A model generated the notes under the pieces. It saw only the letters and a list, made by a program, of their open reading frames with translations, made no database searches and was not told the DNA's origin. From Cyanidioschyzon merolae (Eukaryota), in NCBI GenBank assembly GCA_000091205.1, contig AP006501.2: a stretch of 64,000 bases of DNA, one strand, 5' to 3'. Both the position numbers and the translations under genes were made by a program. Of the stretch, positions 39,309 through 57,825 are shown piece after piece; position 1 is the stretch's first letter, and each line of letters starts with the position of its first letter.

Positions 39309-39575
39309 GTTAGAGTAAAAGCTTCAACGCGTTTATACTCGTACTTATAAAAGCACGTCCGTATCCAAACACGTACTTATGCGAGCATGTGTGAAAGCAC
39401 TCGCGTACAGGGTACCTTCCGGCTGGGCGTCTTGCAGTTTTCAGTGGCCACATTGCCGCGCGTCTGCACCGTCGCGCCGCTTCAGCCTACTTTTCTGCGC
39501 TCTCTGTTACTGTTGCTTGACTTGTCGGACGTGCACCGTATACATCCCGCTAGGACGCTGGGGAGAGAGATCCTT

Positions 39576-41156
39576 ATGAGCAGCGAACAGAACCAGCCTT
39601 CATTTGAGTCAGATGGTCTAAAAATTTCGTCAGTAAGGCAACCAGTAGGGGCGTACTTGGCTGCCACGACAGCAGGTACAAGTGCTGCGAGTAGTGGGCG
39701 GCGGCTTGCGTCGCATGGCACCCGCGATGCGGATCCCGGACGCGGGAGCGCTGAAGACGACCGAGTAATGAGCGACTCGGAGTTGCTGTTGCGCAGAAAC
39801 GTTGGTCGACCTGACACCCTAACAGCAGTAGGAACACGCCTCCTGCCGACACGCAGTCGCGAGACGCTACTCGAGAAACTTCCCAAAGTGCGTTCTGTTG
39901 TCATATCCGGTGTTGCACTACTGCAACTGGTGAAAGAATGGCAACGGGCAGGTAAAGGAAGCGCTTCCAAACGCACTGGTGTCCGATCAATGGAAGGCGC
40001 TGCGTCTGAAGCCTATTGCACGGGCCAGCTCGTCGGCTACCTAGAAGTGGAGCGACGCAGTGACCCCACGAGCGACGACGCCAAAACAGCTGACGCTCTC
40101 GTCTGGGGTGACGTGATGCACGTCACAGCAGCCTTTCCCGCTCCCCGTCTGAGCGTCATTGCCGGTGGTCGCTCGACTTCGGGGAGTGCACCGACGTCGT
40201 TGCCCGCTGCGGTGATAGCCAACCAGATGCAGCAGAGGGGCACTTATCTGTGGGAGCGTTGTCGTCTTCTAAGAGAAGCGTCCCGCGAGAATCTGATTGT
40301 GGGTTGGTTTTGCGTTGGCGATACGAGGCAGCTATCGTCTTTTGTGAACGCAGAATGGACGGAGACGCAGTTTCAACACCAGTTCTGGTTGAAAAATGCG
40401 GTCTGTGTTGTATTTGATCCACTACGGAGACACAGTAGCGGGACGCTCGGGATTCGCGTGGTCCGCCTTTCCGATGCGTTCATGCGAGAGTACAGCAGAC
40501 TCATGGATTATCGAGTCGGAGGCTCGGGAAGCTCAAACAAGGGGTCAGCAGCGCTTCAAGCTTACGGTAGAGGTGGCGGTCGCGTCGCAGCCGGCTCAAC
40601 GTTTGTCTCGGAAGTGCTGCGCGATCTGGGGCTCTGCTCCCAGACAATGATCGAGGACGTTCCTTTCACAGTACACGCGTCAGCGCTCTCGGAACAGTAT
40701 CTGGCATGGAGCGCTCTTCAGCATCCACAAGCACGTGAGAACGCAAAGTTTACAGAACACGCTGCTGCCTGTGACTCTGATGTTCAGAGGCTCTCACTGC
40801 GTCGCGATGGGGTGCTCGTGGAGGAAACCGCTGGCGGTTTGATCCAAGATCTCGATGAGGTCACTAGAGAGCAGTCCCGATACCATCACTTTCTTCGGAA
40901 CTATATCCGAATACAGAATCAACAGCATGAATGGCTACGGAGGCGCCGGGCTGAAAACGAACATCGGCGTCAACAGGGACAGGAGCCTCTGCCCGAGGAA
41001 CCGCTTCCCGCGCATCTTAGTTCATATAGTGAGCCGAGTCGTCTTGAGCCTATGATGACCTTTCGTGATCTTTCGGAAACGCTGCGCGATCTTGAACTCG
41101 TCATTGGAGGCCGTTGTGAGAAACAAGTTACGCTCGAATCCTTCAAGACGGTATAG
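39576..41156 (+). CDS. MPN (JAB1/Mov34/PAD-1) domain protein of the non-catalytic MPN(-) type, with a C-terminal coiled-coil region. ORF is open from 39387.
   Basis: MPN core pattern: VVISGVALLQLVKEW..., QLVGYLEVE, VMHVTAAFPAP, LIVGWFCVGDT (no HxH JAMM motif), VNAEWTETQFQHQFWLKNAVCVVFDP, GTLGIRVVRL. Subfamily not assignable; eIF3f/h, CSN6, Rpn8 and Abraxas-like are all possible. Confidence 0.45.
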   Translation: MSSEQNQPSFESDGLKISSVRQPVGAYLAATTAGTSAASSGRRLASHGTRDADPGRGSAEDDRVMSDSELLLRRNVGRPDTLTAVGTRLLPTRSRETLLEKLPKVRSVVISGVALLQLVKEWQRAGKGSASKRTGVRSMEGAASEAYCTGQLVGYLEVERRSDPTSDDAKTADALVWGDVMHVTAAFPAPRLSVIAGGRSTSGSAPTSLPAAVIANQMQQRGTYLWERCRLLREASRENLIVGWFCVGDTRQLSSFVNAEWTETQFQHQFWLKNAVCVVFDPLRRHSSGTLGIRVVRLSDAFMREYSRLMDYRVGGSGSSNKGSAALQAYGRGGGRVAAGSTFVSEVLRDLGLCSQTMIEDVPFTVHASALSEQYLAWSALQHPQARENAKFTEHAAACDSDVQRLSLRRDGVLVEETAGGLIQDLDEVTREQSRYHHFLRNYIRIQNQQHEWLRRRRAENEHRRQQGQEPLPEEPLPAHLSSYSEPSRLEPMMTFRDLSETLRDLELVIGGRCEKQVTLESFKTV

Positions 41157-42175: not shown

Positions 42176-42712
42176 CTATGGATGCGAGTTGTGTTTTGGA
42201 ATGCATTCACGCTTCGACGCTGATGCACCAGGGCAGTATTCAGTGCTTTTACGCAGTCCTCGTAACATCAACATAGCCCCGATGCCATTCACGAGTGCGA
42301 TACTCCCCAGACATAAACTCAGTGAGAGAGACTCAGCCGGCGAACTCGATGTCGCAATTCGTTGCACAGTCCAGGCGCAGAGCACACCAGCCAGATAAAG
42401 CCGGAAAAAGACGGTCGACCAGAGGAACGCGCCGGGCGAAACAGCTGCAAACCAGTAATAGATCCCAAAACCCTGGGCAACGAGGCCTATCAAGCGTACG
42501 GAGACCACTGAGAAGTGCGGCGGCGGGAAGCACCACCGCAGCGCCAGCTGGGGCCAAACTGCGAGCGCGCTCCCGACAACCAGAAGCGCACAAGCAGTGA
42601 AACGTGCTGCTCGTACGGGTGGTGGTGATGGTGGCGGTGGTGGTGGTGGTGGCGTCAGCTGGACGCCACCACCACCACCACCGGTACCCGAGCACGTCGG
42701 CAAGCCGTACAA
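42176..42712 (-). CDS. Hypothetical small multi-pass membrane protein (4 predicted TM helices). Its N-terminal Gly6/Pro8 run is encoded by a palindromic (GGT)n/(ACC)n tract. The start and the reality of the N-terminus are uncertain.
   Basis: C-terminal 130 aa contain four hydrophobic helices (ALLVVGSALAVW..., LIGLVAQGFGIYYWFAAV, FLWSTVFFRLYLAGVLCAW, LCLGSIALVNGIGAMLMLRGL). The ORF also overlaps the plus-strand ORF 42597..42809 through the palindrome. Confidence 0.35.
   Translation of the reverse strand: MYGLPTCSGTGGGGGGVQLTPPPPPPPPSPPPVRAARFTACALLVVGSALAVWPQLALRWCFPPPHFSVVSVRLIGLVAQGFGIYYWFAAVSPGAFLWSTVFFRLYLAGVLCAWTVQRIATSSSPAESLSLSLCLGSIALVNGIGAMLMLRGLRKSTEYCPGASASKRECIPKHNSHP
42603..42696. 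repeat. Imperfect ~94-bp palindrome / inverted repeat centred on CAGCTG (42656-42661): (GGT)n GGCGT CAGCTG GACGCC (ACC)n.
   Basis: Left arm ggtggtggtggtggcgt (42639-42655) is the reverse complement of right arm (g)acgccaccaccaccacc (42662-42682). Outer flanks cgtgct...gtacgg and ccggtac...agcacg are also partly complementary. Confidence 0.85.
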
Positions 42713-45458
42713 CGGTACCGTCCGAGAACGATACGAGCTGAGACAGCATACCAGACCCGACTACGTCGTGCGTTTTTCAGCGGCACCTGAACGAACATGT
42801 TCCGTCTGAATATTTCACAAGTTGCTTAGCATACCGGAACTTGCTCAGGCAATAGCGTTACAGCAAAAGGTGCTGCAACGAAAGCGCAAGGTGTCATTAC
42901 CGTTTGGGGGGTGATACGGTTCGCAGGCACTTGCCAGAATACGCATACGCAATGTGGAATGGATACCCTCTGCCCCAGTGGCCAGTAGGGTATTTACGCT
43001 GCGTCTGTCGATACGCCCGTGTCAGTGGAAAGTAAAACAGGCTCCGATTTGCTCACTCGAGCGTGCACACACAAGCTTGTGTCCCGTTCCATTGTCATGA
43101 ACAGTAGCTTTTTTGGCTTTTTCTGCAAAAGCTTCGTTTTCCTCTCTCGCTCTCTCTCTCTCATTTCCGAACAGAAAAAAAAACGGCGGTCGAACCCGTG
43201 CTCTTAGACCCCTTATCAGCAGTCAAAGGATGCTGATTGCAGTATCCGAGTCCAAGGTCGCTGATTCCTGCTGCTGTCGAGGCAGTCATGCACAAAATGA
43301 GGTCGCGATCTATGCCTCGCTCGCAACGCTCATCTTCTTTTATTCGCAGACTCGAAGCGTTTTTCGCATCGGTGACACTTGACGATTATCAGGTGATCCG
43401 GTATGTCGACCACACGTCCTCGAGTTCGGAGGATCACCATGTCGCGCTTGGACGATTGCTTCATTGCTCGGTACATGCCCTTGACGAGTATGAAAAGCGC
43501 ACCTCCATGCCCGCCTGCGTTTCCACGATCGGTGCCGTACCCGAAGACCATGGCCTTCCTCTGGCAAGGCCTTCGGTGAGTACGGTTTCTGGTGAAGGTG
43601 CAAGCGCGTGCTGTCCCAATCGATGGAGGATTTATGAAACGCGATCCTGCCCAAGATGATGCACTTACCGGAAGTGGAATCTCGACAGGAGACCAAGTCA
43701 GGAGATTCCTATCTGCCAACGCTGCCTGCTTGCAAAGCGTTGACGTAGTGTTCACCGAAAGTGATCGATGCCACGATCGGGGTCTGAGTACCAGCCGTCT
43801 TTTTATGAAAATAGAAGAGACGGGAGCCTCTGAGTGCTTATCTCGTGGTACGGAGCATGCTGCTGTTGAAGGCGATTTTGGCAACGAGCACAAAAAGAGT
43901 AGAATTTGTGCTTCGAACGAAATCGGTTCCTTGTCGTGCCAAGCTTGGTGAAAAATCAACACGAGCATGTTCTAAGGCCGCAAAAAAATGACGTCGTGTT
44001 TTCTTCCTCGTCTATCCGGCTGCGGTAATAGCGACGCCGGCGAGTTGTCCATCAACAAGCTCGCCGAAAACTTGCAGAATGCGTGTTTCGACCATGCTAT
44101 ACGCAAGGAAAGAAGAAGAGTGAACGCTTGCACATATGCCTCAGATAATCGTGCAGGTTATTTTACGAATCTTTGTTGCGTGGCGTCGCGAATCATCCTG
44201 ATTCCGGTGACGCAACGAATTCCGGCAGCAAAGCGTCGCGGGAGCCACTCCGAGTCGTCGATCGAGAATCCTAAAACTATGAAGGCATTCGGAAAATCCA
44301 TACTGCCGCAGCTCCAATGTCAAGACATTGCACCAAGGAAAGGTTCCGAATCAAAAACCTGAACGCTGGAACACAGCGAGCAGTTCAGTGTTCCAGTCGA
44401 GTCTGCTGGGGGCGGAGGACGCCCTTGCATCTATTGCTGCAAAATTATTGACGCAGAGAGTTACATCACATAACCTGCTAGGCAGAATGGGCTGCGAACC
44501 GGATGCGCACACGGGCCCAGTGCTTTGTGCACCTACGCCCTGGTAGATGCTAAGCAAACGTCCACGTCGCGAACCGGCAACGCATTTCATACAAGATCGC
44601 GAAGGAGAGGTGGCTCCCGGGACTCATCCCAACAACCAAGTTTCTCCAGCATGTGTTGCACCGAAGGCAAGCCTCTATCCGCTGAGTGATTCAACACGTA
44701 TCGACTTCGAGACCCGACTTTCTATCAGGTGCGGCACGACTCGAGCTGACGCCCCCTGTGGTATTGGGACGCCGTCCTGGCTCCATGCACGACTGGACCG
44801 GTGCTAGGGGCGCTATCGCGGACACGTGTGGCACACACGCAGCGCGCATGACTACCCGGAAAACTATCGGTAGCTCCGAGGGAAAGTGTAGCTAGTGGAA
44901 TTTGGTAGTAGAGCGTGGAACGATGGATGCCGCTCCGAGCGCGGGTATCAAGCGCGCATTCGGGCATCCCCGGTCTCAGTAACGGTTTCGTCAACTGAAA
45001 AAGTGCATATCACGGATCCTACGCTCGACCGGTGTTAAGGCGTCTGCGTCGGAGTTTTTGTTTTTGCTGTGATTCGCGGCAGTACTTGCACACTGCGTGG
45101 AGCCTTGTTCGATCAAATGCTCTTATGCCAATCCAAGGACAAAGGTTTTGCATATCTGCCAAGATCACCGGACGGAAACCTCTTCGATGTATCGCCCTTG
45201 CGCCGCAGAAAAGCGAAAGTGGTACGATACCGCAGCGTTCGTTGTGACACATAAAATACATAAATGAACTATTTGCTCCAGATTCGTGGATCTCTCGCGC
45301 CGCATCTGAATAAAAAAGCAGCCGCTGTCCACTGGCGCACGCTGGGTCATTCGCCCGCGCTCCACGCGCATGCGTCCAGCAAGCGGAAGGTACAAACGTT
45401 TCCAAAGTTTGCGCCAAGCGACGGGAGCCACGCCTCTTGATCGTTTTTTACGGGAAGT

Positions 45459-45857
45459 ATGGACGCTACATCAGCGACTTCTGGACATGCGACAGAAATC
45501 ACGTTACCAAGCGCCAAACAGCTGATAGTGAATACGCTGCGTCGCGCTTGGCGAACCCCAAGGACGCATCGCGCAAAAGCCTGCGTCTGGAAAGCGAAGG
45601 CTCAACGTCAGCGAACCTGGGCAGACAAAGAGGCGGATCGAGAACGTTTGCAAGCAGTAAAAAAGTTAGAGCGCAGCCTGAAGGAGAAGGCGCGGGCACA
45701 GCGGGCAGCTGAAGCAGAGCGAAGAGCCCAAATGCGCGCCGAACGTGAAGCCAACGCCCTCCGCACCGGCACGAAAGTGCAGATTGTGCGTGATTCGAAC
45801 AAGATCAAGCGCATGTCTAAAAAGCAGCAAAAATTGCTACGAAAGATGGCATTATAG
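45459..45857 (+). CDS. Cgr1/CCDC86-like small basic coiled-coil nucleolar protein (putative).
   Basis: 132 aa, Lys/Arg/Glu-rich. ACVWKAKAQRQRTWADKEADRERLQAVKKLERSLKEKARAQR fits the Cgr1 pattern (vWK..K.Afr....sWe.R...R.....Ke.E.E.K). Confidence 0.45.
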   Translation: MDATSATSGHATEITLPSAKQLIVNTLRRAWRTPRTHRAKACVWKAKAQRQRTWADKEADRERLQAVKKLERSLKEKARAQRAAEAERRAQMRAEREANALRTGTKVQIVRDSNKIKRMSKKQQKLLRKMAL

Positions 45858-53034: not shown

Positions 53035-56000
53035 CTACGGGAGGCGGGTGCGACGTGCCTTAAGCATGCGCCGCGGCGCCATGGTACCAGGAGCGTGCGC
53101 ATCGCCAAGGGCTTGCGTTGGTGCGAATCCAGGCGCTCCCAGCAACGGTGTCGCTGGCGGAGGCACGCCATTCGCCGCCGGGTCACTCGGAGCCAGCGAC
53201 GGCCACGGTAAGGACGCTGGCAACGGTGCGGCAGCGCCCGATGCGGGCCACGGTGATTGCAACGACGACACCGCTGGTGCCGAGACAGTCGGCGTCTGCA
53301 TCGGTGCACTGAGCGATGAGGTCGTCCACATTGATGTACCGTTCGTGCCTTGAGATGCCGATCCAAACCAGAAAGGTTCCGAATTGGTACTTGCTGTCGG
53401 TGCAGAGAACAACCAAGCGGGTGGTTTCGGCGGCGCGTTGCTAGCAGAAGCGGCGACCGTGGTATCAGTTGCGCCAGCCGCTGGTGGACCAAAGTGAAAC
53501 GTGCGCGCAGGAGCCGGTATCGCGAATGCTCCCTGTGAAATAGATGCCTTCGGTGCAGGGGCCGCGGTTGCGGGCACCTGTTGCGATGCCCCACTTGTGT
53601 CCTGCGATTGCAGGGGCGTCTTCTGGGGTGATTCCCCAAGCGCGGCACCAGCTGTGTCAACGGTTTGTATGGACTGCGTTTCTGTGGAATTCGGCTTCCG
53701 GGATGCGGTTCCGTCGCTGACGGGCGCTGCCGATGTCTCAGCCGCGGATTTGGTTTCGTACGCCGCCTTTTGCGGCATCGCCATCTCAGAGGCTGATTCC
53801 TGCTGCTCTTGCCCAGTACTGCCAGGCGGAGCGTGCATCCGTGGTACGTCATCGGGCGACGCTGACGCCAGCGTATTCGGCTTCGGGTCTGCTGGTGCGC
53901 CGGAGCACTGCGCGATCTCATCGTGTTCGTGCGGCAGTTCTGTCTGCACAAATCCCGCGAGCGATGTCTTTGCGATTTCCGACGACGACGGCGCAACGTC
54001 CAATGACCCTGATGCTGTTGGAGCAGGCGCTGCCGCATTCGGTGGTGCTATGTGTACGGAGGAGTCTGTAGATTCCTGTCGCGACGCTGATTCGCTCGAC
54101 ACCGGCACCGTCGAAGGCTGCACAGTCGTATCAACAGGCACGTACCCGGTTCTTTGAGTAGAGCCGGCTGTGGACAGTGATGGCGGTCGCCAAGGTTCCG
54201 GAATACGCGGCAACGCGATCTCGAGAGGGCGCATGCGCGGTGGCAGCGTCGGCAATGTCGGTGCGTCGGGACTGGAACCCTTCGACAACGTTGTCTCTGC
54301 AGCGTCGGCATGGAGCTGGGCTTCTGGTGACGCTTGTTGCGCGTGCTCTCCATGCTCTGGTAGCGACACCGTTCGTTGCACTTGGAGTTCATCATCGCCG
54401 AGTTTTGACGGGACTATTCGCCGCATGGCTTCGAGTTGCATGTCCCTGGCACCACCAGCCGCAGCACCAAATACGGTCGCAGATTTTGACCTGGCCTGCT
54501 GCTCAGCATCTCCTGTAGGTGGCAATGAAACAGCACCAGCATCCCGCGTAGTTGGCGCTGTGGTGTCATGCGTACCAGTGGCGGCGAGGTCCACTGCAGC
54601 AGCACTTGCATGCTGATCGGCCTTCAGCGGTGGTGTTCGCAAATGCATGTCTTGTTCGGCAGTGAGAGACGACGAGATGTTCGCGTCATCAGCGGAAACA
54701 TCCATCGAAAGCGTACGGCGCTTATTCCGAGCCGCCACTGTTTGCGCAGCACGGTCCAATGCGACGTCCAGCTCAGTACTATGGTCTATGGTGAAACCGC
54801 GATTGCTAGTCACGTCGGATGCAGCGGTTGCTGCTGCGGGTGTTCGCTTCCCAGGTGTTATGCAAGTGTCGCGCTCCCGCTCCGGCTGATCGCGAATCCT
54901 CTTCAGCGATTCGATGAGTTGATATAGGCGGCTCGTTGGAGCTCCAGCGCCATCACCATCTTTGCGGATGTCTGCTCGGGCTCGCTGACCATCGCGCCCA
55001 TTTTGATGCCTATCGGAACGCGTACCCGTCACGATAAGGTTAGCGTCTGATCGGCGCCGTTTCGCCGCACTCATCCGCAGTGCAGGCGATCCATCGAACG
55101 TCCAGACGGCATCTAAACTGCGGTTCTGCACGCTGTGCGCCTGGGATGGCACTGATCCGCTGCCCAGGGATCCAGACGGTAGCGCGCCAGCGCTCTGCTC
55201 GAACACGCCAATGGGGCTGGTTCGCTTCGCGGATGTCGCATTGCTTGTTCGCGTTCGCCCATGCGGGACGTCTCGCAGCGGAAGTGTCGTGAGCGGTACC
55301 GCAGGCAACTTCACGTGACGGACGTCTGCTCTATTTCGCAACCAGCCATCACTTCTGTCGTCGATAGCGCTCATTCCTGACCGCTCTAATTCGCGTCCAA
55401 GAAGGCTCGTCGATAACCTAGGATCCAGGTGCTCCTGCTGGTAGCTCTCTGGATGCGCGCAAAGCGTACTGTAGTGCTGCCTCTCGAGTGAAGCGTGCAA
55501 CGACGACGATCGAGCTCTGTAGGTGTCCAGCATCGACGACGACAGGCGTTCGGTGCTATGCTGTGTGAAACGTGCCTCTAGTCGCGACGCACCAGCGACG
55601 AAATCCGACTCGGTCGGTGTCCATGGCGACAGGCGGCGGAAATCGGAACCGCTTGGACGTACCGAGTACATGGTGCTGGTCGGTGTCGCGGCAGGGGCAT
55701 CCATAATACGCCGATGCGGCACGATCCCCAATGCAGACGGCCGTATCTTTGGTGCTGGCGGCAGGTCGGCCAAATTTCGGATGAGCGACTGCTCCTGCGC
55801 AGGAGATCCCCCTTTTGATGCCTGAATCGCAACGCCCATCGATCGCGTCTCTGTTCGCTGCCTGAACGTCCGAATGACATCGTAGCTGGTCACGAGCGAT
55901 GCCTGCCGGGTGCTACGCTCTGGTGCTCGCGAATCGTTCGCGGGTTGCGCTCCGTAAACCCGTGTCGTAGGGGATTCGGTGTGGGTCGCGGTGGTGGCTG

Positions 56001-57825
56001 CGGCGCGTTCATGTCGTGAGGTGCTATCCAGGTTCGTCAAGAGCTGGGTCGGGGCTAGACTCTCGTGCGGCTGCGATACAGCCGTCCGCTGCTCTGGCAA
56101 ACGCGCTGTCGGCACTGGCCCTGAAGAACAGGCGATCGCGGGAGCCAGCGAATCCGCAACATCGCGTGCCAGTGCGGTCGAGGTTGCGCGAGATGACGCA
56201 TCCGGAACCTGTTGCGTCGTGCCCGAGAGCACGGAATCCCGGGAATGCTGCGCTTCACTGGCGTACTGGTCACTTTCGGAGCGAGTGGGATCTCCAGTGT
56301 CCATCAGGAGGCTATCTTGCCTCTGGACGACTCCATCCTTCAGAGGCAACGCTTTCGAGTCGTTCGCATATTCGAGCTGCGTCTCTTGCTTGTGCGGCGT
56401 GTGTTTTGAAGCATCCTCGCACTCACGGGCCGAGTCTGCCGAAGCGGATACAGTCGCTGTTTCGCCGACCATGCGCGTACGCTGCACCGTCCCATTAGAC
56501 GCATCTCCATCTGATGATGCACTCGAATAGCGTCCACGATGTTCTCGTGAATCTGTTCTCGAGGACTGCAAGCCATTGGGAGATCCATGTTCAAGACTAG
56601 TCGACGCGGCAGGGGATCTGCTGCTCCCGCGCCAGAGACGCCACCATCTCGACAATGACATCTGGAGTCGTCCGAGCCACCCGTGCGCACCTCGAATCCT
56701 GAGCATAGCTCCAAGCGTCAAGTCTTCCCGTGAATTTGCGCAAAGCTCCTGTGCCTCCATCGAGCTCAGGGCTCGCGCGATGGCCCGGGTTTCGACGGCC
56801 ACTGCCCTGCTGGATTGCTTCCGTACGCCACCGTCGTGCTGTTTCGGTTTCGTCGCTCGCTGTACAGCTCTTGTGGTGCCTTTTTTACCAGGCACACTGT
56901 CCCGATTCATAACATGAGCTGTTCCTGTTCGCCTCTGTACGGGATGCGAGCGTCTGCCTGTCTGGCGTCCATGGACAACACCCGTCCCGGTCGTGGTCTG
57001 GTCATGCGCCTCGCGCACTGCATACAAGTGAGAATGTTCGTCCGATGAGGAGACGCTCCGCTGAGGCGATGCCTCCTCCTGATGATGACGCTCCCGCGGC
57101 AACGACTCCATTCCGGACGGCAAGTGCACGGACGCTGTGGCGCTGGGCACGCTCGAGCGCCCGCGTGGCGCTCGCTGCTGTGAGCCCCTGCCCGGAGACT
57201 CCGACTCGAGCGCACCTTGATTCGATGAACTCTGGACATATGTCGCTATATGATCGCTAGACTGGCGTTGTGCACTTGTGGAAACCGTTGATCGAGGCGT
57301 CTGCTCCGTCGCTCGGCAAGCAAGGGCAGCAGCTCTGCGCACCTGAGACCGCGTGAGTGGGCCATTCTCGTTCGAAAAGCTCGCTGTTGCACGCTTCTGA
57401 CCAGGAGCAAGTTCGTAGCCGGCCTCAACCGTCACACTTAGCCTTCGCACCGGGGTTTCGTGCTCGGGTCGCACGGGCGTGTCGGACGGAGTACCTGCGA
57501 GTCCTCCGTGTGGCTCCTGCACAGCTACTGGCGAACTCTCCGCTGACTGGTCTCTCCTTGAAAGGGTAGTGTCGCTACGCTCCCCAGCTGACTTTCTTCG
57601 AGCGGCTGATGTCTTGCGACTAGACTTCGTCTTCAAAGGCACGTCCGTCTCTACGGAGTGAGACGGCGTCCGCGTACTCGTCGACCTACTGGAACGCCGT
57701 CGGGGGGTCCGTCGTCGCGGGCTTGTCCTCCAACGGGCTTCGATGCGGGATCCTTCCGGCAAGTCATAGTTGCCGTGTCGCGTGCTTACCATACCAGCTG
57801 TCAGTGGACGCCTTGAGCGCACCAA
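53035..57825 (-). CDS. Hypothetical very large (1596 aa) intrinsically disordered Ser/Thr/Pro/Ala/Arg-rich protein. The N-terminus is RS-dipeptide-rich. The C-terminus is Pro/Ala-rich with sparse FG motifs.
   Basis: 4.8-kb uninterrupted ORF. Such length is very unlikely by chance even at this GC content. No globular domain recognised. A second frame (52704..54038) is also open over the 3-prime part because of compositional bias. Confidence 0.5.
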   Translation of the reverse strand: MVRSRRPLTAGMVSTRHGNYDLPEGSRIEARWRTSPRRRTPRRRSSRSTSTRTPSHSVETDVPLKTKSSRKTSAARRKSAGERSDTTLSRRDQSAESSPVAVQEPHGGLAGTPSDTPVRPEHETPVRRLSVTVEAGYELAPGQKRATASFSNENGPLTRSQVRRAAALACRATEQTPRSTVSTSAQRQSSDHIATYVQSSSNQGALESESPGRGSQQRAPRGRSSVPSATASVHLPSGMESLPRERHHQEEASPQRSVSSSDEHSHLYAVREAHDQTTTGTGVVHGRQTGRRSHPVQRRTGTAHVMNRDSVPGKKGTTRAVQRATKPKQHDGGVRKQSSRAVAVETRAIARALSSMEAQELCANSREDLTLGAMLRIRGAHGWLGRLQMSLSRWWRLWRGSSRSPAASTSLEHGSPNGLQSSRTDSREHRGRYSSASSDGDASNGTVQRTRMVGETATVSASADSARECEDASKHTPHKQETQLEYANDSKALPLKDGVVQRQDSLLMDTGDPTRSESDQYASEAQHSRDSVLSGTTQQVPDASSRATSTALARDVADSLAPAIACSSGPVPTARLPEQRTAVSQPHESLAPTQLLTNLDSTSRHERAAATTATHTESPTTRVYGAQPANDSRAPERSTRQASLVTSYDVIRTFRQRTETRSMGVAIQASKGGSPAQEQSLIRNLADLPPAPKIRPSALGIVPHRRIMDAPAATPTSTMYSVRPSGSDFRRLSPWTPTESDFVAGASRLEARFTQHSTERLSSSMLDTYRARSSSLHASLERQHYSTLCAHPESYQQEHLDPRLSTSLLGRELERSGMSAIDDRSDGWLRNRADVRHVKLPAVPLTTLPLRDVPHGRTRTSNATSAKRTSPIGVFEQSAGALPSGSLGSGSVPSQAHSVQNRSLDAVWTFDGSPALRMSAAKRRRSDANLIVTGTRSDRHQNGRDGQRARADIRKDGDGAGAPTSRLYQLIESLKRIRDQPERERDTCITPGKRTPAAATAASDVTSNRGFTIDHSTELDVALDRAAQTVAARNKRRTLSMDVSADDANISSSLTAEQDMHLRTPPLKADQHASAAAVDLAATGTHDTTAPTTRDAGAVSLPPTGDAEQQARSKSATVFGAAAGGARDMQLEAMRRIVPSKLGDDELQVQRTVSLPEHGEHAQQASPEAQLHADAAETTLSKGSSPDAPTLPTLPPRMRPLEIALPRIPEPWRPPSLSTAGSTQRTGYVPVDTTVQPSTVPVSSESASRQESTDSSVHIAPPNAAAPAPTASGSLDVAPSSSEIAKTSLAGFVQTELPHEHDEIAQCSGAPADPKPNTLASASPDDVPRMHAPPGSTGQEQQESASEMAMPQKAAYETKSAAETSAAPVSDGTASRKPNSTETQSIQTVDTAGAALGESPQKTPLQSQDTSGASQQVPATAAPAPKASISQGAFAIPAPARTFHFGPPAAGATDTTVAASASNAPPKPPAWLFSAPTASTNSEPFWFGSASQGTNGTSMWTTSSLSAPMQTPTVSAPAVSSLQSPWPASGAAAPLPASLPWPSLAPSDPAANGVPPPATPLLGAPGFAPTQALGDAHAPGTMAPRRMLKARRTRLP

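Follow-up and report, generated by a model that had tools for sequence, protein, structure and literature searches.

The window analysed here, a 64-kb stretch of DNA taken as a whole, belongs to chromosome 19 of Cyanidioschyzon merolae 10D (~55% GC) and encodes eIF3h, FACT/SPT16, Hsp110, an M1 aminopeptidase and TsaD/Kae1. Neither Rfam families nor tRNAs were found in it. Six of its ORFs were identical to GenBank proteins of strain 10D, including CMS338C, CMS348C and Hsp110 (BAM82924). The minus strand carries a gene that appears to encode a small protein with a core of four transmembrane segments (4-TM), and near the 5' end of this gene lies a palindromic triplet repeat, which is the subject of this report.

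Several features of the surroundings were recorded. The eIF3h ORF (39387-41156, plus strand) yields 589 aa from its first ATG; that exact product is absent from the protein collection, and the protein is called at 592 or 526 aa in environmental strains. Presumably the annotated eIF3h start in 10D differs. The start of the 4-TM gene is separated from a syntenic gene for a Cgr1-like protein of 132 aa (45459..45857) by ~2.66 kb in C. merolae (42799-45458), whereas in Cyanidiococcus (contig L014) and in assembly GCA_041825655 (contig L015) only ~150 nt lie between them. ORFs within this interval, such as one of 212 aa at 43330..43968, gave no Pfam match, and the same gene-poor stretch contains a (CT)10 dinucleotide microsatellite at 43142-43162. 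Elsewhere in the window, a 1596-aa ORF without a Pfam match (53035-57825, minus strand) lies in a block of ~60-62% GC, compared to 55%, with a strong negative AT skew.

On the plus strand, positions 42635-42683 read C(GGT)5GGCGTC-AGCTG-GACGCC(ACC)5G, a near-perfect palindrome of 49 nt in which a 5-nt loop separates two arms of 22 nt (each made up of 21 nt of repeat and arm core, with one closing C-G pair). The almost perfect inverted repeat of ~45 bp reported in a preliminary description of this DNA is therefore real. An inverted-repeat search extended the arms to 27 nt (42630-42656 / 42662-42688) at 93% complementarity. The imperfect palindrome of ~94 bp said to enclose the core did not hold up: the 30-nt flanks were no more complementary than shuffled sequence (local score 6.0, shuffle mean 6.0, p ~0.6), and the outer symmetry is apparent only because the ACC/GGT repeat is longer on one side and a short GTACGG/CCGTAC match is present. 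A tandem-repeat scan (TRF) at period 3 measured the GGT array on the plus strand at 11.7 units (42618-42652) on one side and 5.7 units (42666-42682) on the other. The array that encodes a Pro-run on the minus strand (42617..42652) is the longer half of the triplet array and probably the older half.

The proposed hairpin potential was borne out by folding. As DNA, the segment 42590-42710 reached -49 kcal/mol, compared to -25.6 ± 3.1 for shuffles (z -7.45), and a fold as good was seen in none of 200 shuffles; as minus-strand RNA it reached -69.4 kcal/mol (z -6.5). The 22-bp stem thus provides the stable intrastrand hairpin characteristic of quasipalindrome hotspots. The element stands alone in the 64-kb window. 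No other inverted repeat had arms longer than 19 nt spaced by less than 60 nt, the remainder being of 19 nt or less and imperfect, and (GGT)4 was found only at the palindrome locus (four overlapping matches, 0.02 expected). Coordinates are collected in Table 1.

Table 1. Features of the palindrome and of the gene that contains it (positions in the window).
Feature	Position	Strand	Content or basis
Core palindrome, 49 nt	42635..42683	unstranded	sequence, folding, repeat search
Left arm, (GGT)5GGCGTC	42636..42656	plus-strand reading	C42635 is the extra closing pair; on the gene strand Thr and the start of the Pro-run in the downstream frame
Right arm, GACGCC(ACC)5	42662..42682	plus-strand reading	G42683 is the extra closing pair; on the gene strand (GGT)5GGCGTC
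Right arm in the start-codon frame	42662..42682	gene strand	Val-run (GTG)5-GCG-TC.
Pro-run repeat	42617..42652	minus	(CCA/CCG)8-TCA-(CCA)2-CCC, P8-S-P3
Gene 5' segment, start-codon frame	42655..42798	minus	ATG 42798-42796, leader MFVQVPLKNARRSRVWYAVSARIVLGRYRCTACRRARVP, Val-run 42681-42667, premature TGA 42657-42655
Gene 3' segment, -1 frame in the reference	42176..42654	minus	Thr-Pro-run, conserved 4-TM core (VRAARFT...MLMLRGL), stop 42178-42176
Frameshift site	42655..42656	minus	reference 1 nt short relative to all natural alleles

The preliminary description had noted that a minus-strand ORF (42176..42712) and a plus-strand ORF (42597..42809) each run through a Gly-run and then a Pro-run, which is correct as translation, and it doubted that a Gly/Pro-rich N-terminus was genuine. 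That doubt was well placed. The minus-strand ORF of 178 aa starts with TTG under the bacterial code, is preceded by a stop 15 codons upstream of the TTG and has its first ATG only at about residue 150; the plus-strand ORF of 70 aa starts with GTG, contains no ATG and is the mirror image of the minus reading, and no homolog was found for it. Neither Gly-run is credible as a eukaryotic N-terminus. What was overlooked is the third frame, in which (GTG)n encodes a Val-run and (CCA)n the Pro-run that follows, and the environmental proteins, which run from a conserved start through both, mark this as the likely true reading of the palindrome. The C. merolae genome is nearly intronless, so the gene needs an ATG of its own. 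In the reference, the ATG-bearing leader forms a separate ORF of 47 aa that ends at the TGA in the centre of the palindrome. Read from the ATG at 42798 to the stop at 42176, the gene is predicted to encode a protein of ~205 aa composed of an MF leader, a Val/Ala-Ser/Pro linker and the 4-TM core.

A search with the 178-aa translation returned four protein clusters, none of them from 10D. Two were environmental metagenome clusters from C. merolae-like strains (99% identity), one was Cyanidiococcus yangmingshanensis KAF6003314.1 (hypothetical protein F1559_003213; 65% identity over the core) and one came from a third Cyanidiales genome, GCA_041825655 (57% identity). In all three genera the orthologs occupy the same syntenic place, flanked by SPT16 and eIF3h, begin with a conserved MF[V/L] and share 70 invariant residues; beyond the start, conservation resumes at a (K/R)AAR motif. 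At the position of the tract, neither a repeat nor a hairpin was found in the orthologs of the two other genera, whose best 80-nt folds (-31 and -37 kcal/mol) lie elsewhere; in the C. merolae lineage the best 80-nt folds range from -57 to -64 kcal/mol. By this comparison, the palindrome would be an insertion specific to the C. merolae lineage, placed in a poorly conserved leader just before the (K/R)AAR motif.

These results bear on the suggestion that the palindrome, rather than encoding protein, forms a regulatory 5' UTR hairpin for the 4-TM gene, which we regard as very improbable. The ATG-less 178-aa frame does make the Gly/Pro stretch of the reference look untranslated. The palindrome begins, however, 115 nt downstream of the conserved MF[V/L] start, not upstream of the initiation codon, lies within the ORF in every natural allele and would be translated in the third frame. 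A start beyond the hairpin could not supply the 4-TM protein, since no ATG occurs until about residue 150, and the natural alleles read as one continuous ORF from the conserved MF, with indels that are all multiples of 3.

The protein itself belongs to a small family. Pfam gave nothing credible for it even at E<=10, and a profile search of 1.84 billion representatives returned 12 proteins only. The distant members came from metagenomes, the dinoflagellate Effrenium voratum and the prasinophyte Pyramimonas; among eukaryotes, distant homologs occurred in plastid-bearing ones only. AlphaFold2, run on a three-sequence alignment, predicted with modest confidence a helical membrane bundle (pLDDT 62.8 overall, 70-83 in the core) and a disordered N-terminus. 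In a transcript of Pyramimonas sp. CCMP2087 (proteins P0092 / P0098), a distant relative of the 4-TM region (window 42176-42616, minus strand) is fused to a MinC_C domain (PF03775, E 5e-22); the 4-TM part was aligned by hhalign with a probability of 96.5%. The fusion hints that the 4-TM family may be linked to plastid division-site control, for which C. merolae is a model organism.

Plastid targeting in rhodophytes depends on a phenylalanine at the very N-terminus (PMC7038456). All three genera have this F-type motif in the form of MF[V/L], and the first 39 residues contain 10 basic and no acidic residues, as in a basic, acid-poor presequence. The leader is probably a red-algal F-type plastid transit peptide. 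Motif, composition and the taxonomic range of the distant homologs together suggest a plastid-targeted membrane protein whose leader tolerates changes in length.

To describe natural variation we used 17 environmental contigs that cover the locus: 13 came from protein look-ups and four, of which two were new, from a scan of metagenome DNA that used the downstream flank as query. Protein look-ups favour in-frame variants and the sample from the DNA scan is small; both contigs found by the DNA scan alone were in frame. A common ORF, MFVQ...RARVP-Vn-A[AS]AL[T]-Pn-S[PL]PP-VRAARF, was read in 16 contigs. The environmental proteins begin with MFVQVPL[KI]NARRSRVWYAVSARIVLGRYRCTACRRARVP, followed by the Val-run, A[AS]AL[T], the Pro-run, S[PL]PP, and VRAARFT with the membrane core, and each of the 12 members of the two environmental protein clusters was a full-length in-frame protein unless a contig end truncated it.

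The predicted instability was evident from these contigs. Seven full-length tract alleles were found in addition to deletions (Table 2), with GGT copies in the Val-arm ranging from 3 to 7 and the ACC-run from 5 to 7. All length variants were multiples of 3, so that each of the 16 environmental contigs spanning the tract was 0 mod 3, the whole-unit, frame-keeping variation expected of a coding trinucleotide microsatellite. The flanks contained 50 variable columns in 3.5 kb, and 10D differed from each environmental strain by ~0.5-0.9%. By sequence comparison the tract is the most variable spot and by far the fastest-changing part of the locus.

Table 2. Alleles of the tract, written on the gene strand. 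L numbers denote environmental contigs.
Source	Tract
10D reference (window)	(GGT)5 GGCGTC CAGCT GACGCC (ACC)5
L001, L002, L017, L019	(GGT)3 GGCGTC AGCGCT GACGCC (ACC)5
L010	(GGT)3 GGCGGC AGCGCT GACGCC (ACC)5
L004, L005	(GGT)6 GGCGGC AGCGCT GACGCC (ACC)5
L016	(GGT)4 TGT GGT GGCGTC AGCGCT GACGCC (ACC)5
L003	(GGT)6 GGCGGC AGCGCT GCCGCC (ACC)7
L011, L012, L018	(GGT)7 GGCGGC AGCGCT GCCGCC (ACC)6
L007	hairpin precisely deleted
L008, L009	120-nt in-frame deletion
L006	poly-G/poly-C version, regarded as an artefact
L013	contig starts inside the palindrome; no full allele

Three of the alleles recur across independent samples and assemblers. Short-read assemblers break or garble contigs at the palindrome, and the singletons (L003, L010, L016 and L007) could be errors. 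In contig L006 (1682-2332; Ga0506611_000482), long poly-G/poly-C runs stand in place of the palindrome and are probably a sequencing or assembly artefact, while L009 (positions 1-60) and L013 (position 1) stop at or next to it. Such assembler trouble, and the fact that palindromes are error-prone, would fit the possibility, allowed for in the preliminary description, that the whole palindrome is an assembly artefact, a collapsed inverted duplication. There is next to no chance of this: the same architecture was found in the Sanger reference and in more than 10 independent short-read metagenome assemblies from different samples and pipelines. Only a single base of the reference, at 42655/42656, is in doubt, not the palindrome as a whole.

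Two further observations concern individual alleles. The 120-nt deletion (L008 1426-1923, L009 60-557; proteins P0005 and P0011) was found in at least two samples, has a junction microhomology of GC|AC and yields the product MFVQVPLINA|PPPPPSLPP, in which most of the leader and the Val arm are gone. If the deletion is real, either the protein can do without a large part of its putative transit peptide or the variants are minor and non-functional. Tract alleles and flanking haplotypes were also discordant: the K8/Y and I8/H backgrounds share the (GGT)3 GTC/GAC allele (L019 compared to L001, L002 and L017), which points to recurrent mutation or to recombination among strains.

Set against these alleles, the reference is one base short. 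From the last GTG to the first CCA there are 14 nt in the reference and 15 nt in the full-length environmental alleles, which gives the reading GCG TCC AGC TGA; accordingly, the length from the ATG to the downstream anchor is 2 mod 3 in the window and 0 mod 3 in all 16 tract-spanning environmental contigs. If one base is added between 42656 and 42655 (G on the gene strand, hence C on the plus strand), an ORF of 207 aa is restored, which contains ...RARVPVVVVVASSWTPPPPPPPPSPPPVRAARF..., and the palindrome becomes perfect at 50 nt. On the plus strand, GGCGTCAGCTGGACGCC of the reference becomes GGCGTCCAGCTGGACGCC, and the repaired stretch reads GGCGT[C]CAGCTGGACGCC. When all single-base insertions that restore the frame were enumerated within the tract, ~70 distinct outcomes were obtained and exactly one produced a perfect palindrome. 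On this comparison, the reference allele is best described as a perfect palindrome minus one base.

This frameshift, at the exact centre of the palindrome, was missed in the preliminary description. With the centre one base short, the TGA splits the ATG-bearing leader from the 4-TM core, which is why an ATG-less ORF was met there and why no 10D protein exists for the gene. Among the protein records, none from 10D matched the gene; neither of the other local ORFs that start with ATG (138 aa and 212 aa) was on record, and an exact look-up of the truncated 47-aa product found no independent assembly with the same frameshift. The frameshift thus seems to be the reason that the gene lacks an annotation in 10D.

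The 10D genome was determined by Sanger sequencing of shotgun and BAC clones in E. coli, and its earlier versions contained errors; the genome paper makes no remark on a hairpin, palindrome or frameshift (PMC1955436). Both an error of base-calling or cloning at a GC-rich stem of 23 bp and a true loss of 1 bp in the laboratory strain are plausible. The remainder of the 10D ORF is undamaged, and this fits either a sequencing error or a very recent mutation. We place roughly even odds on a true null mutation of the laboratory strain and a sequencing error.

Two further explanations concern the shifted frame. The palindromic repeat might act as a contingency-type on/off switch that toggles the reading frame, with 10D as an OFF variant. 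That 10D is out of frame exactly within the hypermutable tract, in an ORF otherwise intact, is what such a switch would produce. Slippage of a 3-nt unit, however, cannot shift the frame, all 16 environmental contigs were in frame, none of the 12 clustered protein variants begins downstream through a frameshift, and the lone OFF case may be a sequencing error. We consider the switch improbable. It is less credible still that the 10D gene is rescued by a programmed -1 shift of the ribosome at the hairpin. A -1 shift is indeed what rescue would need and a strong stem is present, but no X XXY YYZ heptamer precedes the TGA in the start-codon frame (GTA CCG GTG GTG GTG GTG GTG GCG TCC AGC TGA), the slip site would itself be part of the stem instead of preceding it by 5-9 nt, and all relatives are read in a single frame.

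Although the arms, the centre and the length of the tract differ among alleles, its symmetry is largely kept. The arm pairs are T/A (GGCGTC/GACGCC) and G/C (GGCGGC/GCCGCC), with a one-sided intermediate, G/A (GGCGGC/GACGCC). The centre is CAGCGCTG in the environmental strains and CCAGCTGG in 10D once one base is added, each self-complementary. Perfect palindromes of 36, 54 and 56 nt were present in different alleles, and the stems range from 16 to 28 bp, with internal mismatches in three alleles. The clustered changes thus raise or restore complementarity, as expected if the arms are being homogenised. The tract of L003, when reverse-complemented, is identical to that of L011, a relation that slippage alone could explain. 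Inversion of the spacer would leave no trace, the centres AGCGCT and CAGCTG being self-complementary.

Template switching between the arms of inverted repeats homogenises the arms and can both create and maintain hairpins (PMC8604942, PMC8794818, PMC7202029). The alleles match the pattern expected from template switching together with ordinary 3-nt slippage, and from this match we infer the mechanism. The Pro-coding (CCA)n arm, which is longer, probably came first, and a partial inverted copy of it may have given rise to the (GTG)n arm. Later change would have combined replication slippage, 3 nt at a time, with switches of template from one arm to the other, as the allele patterns and the known mechanism suggest; switching would homogenise the arms and so regenerate perfect palindromes repeatedly. 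Variation of the tract would be tolerated because the site is a poorly conserved leader/linker, in which the reading frame alone matters.

The main rival to template switching is selection for the hairpin. According to this explanation the hairpin is functional, for example as an mRNA structure that throttles translation of a membrane protein during targeting or as a DNA cruciform bound by a factor, and the two-sided changes are compensatory. Symmetry has been retained or restored in several alleles despite differing arm lengths, arm sequences and centres, and the predicted RNA stems of the alleles are very stable (-38 to -69 kcal/mol), both of which selection would account for. Template switching, however, gives the same two-sided pattern without selection (PMC8604942, PMC8794818). 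Moreover, the orthologs of the two other genera lack a hairpin at this site, deletion alleles exist (precise in L007; 120 nt in L008 and L009, from two samples), and the stems are neither constant in length nor free of mismatches. We therefore judge a functional hairpin unlikely.

The best explanation, to which we assign a probability of roughly 0.78, is a lineage-specific, hypermutable, quasi-palindromic trinucleotide repeat within a coding gene, shaped by slippage and template switching, with the 10D reference one base short. There is an outside chance that the locus is something more unusual, that is, either a palindrome kept by selection (for example as a ribosome-pausing mRNA hairpin that coordinates the targeting of a plastid membrane protein, possibly connected to plastid division through the MinC_C-fused relatives) or a eukaryotic contingency-like switch found naturally OFF in 10D.

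The locus is of modest interest in three respects. Strain 10D is a model organism with a genome described as 100% complete, yet a conserved Cyanidiales membrane-protein gene is apparently missing from its protein set over one base of a hairpin; in practical terms, the gene is either defective in this strain or wrongly sequenced, and seems to have escaped annotation. The locus is also a clear natural case of a long coding palindrome whose symmetry persists although arms, centre and length all vary between strains that are ~1% divergent elsewhere, and it offers useful material for studying how template switching and microsatellite slippage combine in a eukaryote whose habitat is at 40-50 C. It also serves as a warning that a palindromic triplet repeat yields plausible homopeptide ORFs on both strands, none of which need be the real frame.

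The phenomena seen here are known ones, and the element is a fresh instance in which a quasi-palindromic hotspot and a coding microsatellite coincide. For the gene that carries it, the closest named counterpart, F1559_003213 (KAF6003314.1), is an ortholog with the same synteny, the same MF start and 65% core identity, but it has no Val/Pro tract, hairpin or Pfam family. Like bacterial phase-variable loci, this membrane-protein gene carries a hypermutable repeat close to its 5' end, and one sequenced strain is out of frame within the tract. Unlike them, it is eukaryotic and has a 3-nt unit, and its natural alleles are all in frame; on/off alleles set by repeat number were not found, since the 10D reference alone was out of frame and none of the 16 environmental contigs was. 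As in coding trinucleotide microsatellites, (GTG)n and (CCA)n vary by whole codons in a region that is poorly conserved and probably disordered or cleaved. Here, however, two complementary arrays lie head-to-head and form a palindrome, and a single frame of one repeat family yields both Val and Pro, its other frames giving Gly/Pro or Val/His.

The locus also resembles the quasipalindrome or template-switch hotspots described in phage T4, E. coli, yeast coding genes and primate genomes (PMC7202029, PMC8604942, PMC8794818). These too are imperfect, hairpin-forming inverted repeats in which clustered two-sided changes keep the arms complementary, perfect palindromes arise repeatedly and, where the DNA is coding, several adjacent amino acids are altered at once. 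The locus differs in that its arms are themselves trinucleotide microsatellites, so that slippage and switching would act together and arm length varies, and in that stems in the C. merolae lineage reach 28 bp, compared to the inverted repeats of 6-15 bp typical of those studies.
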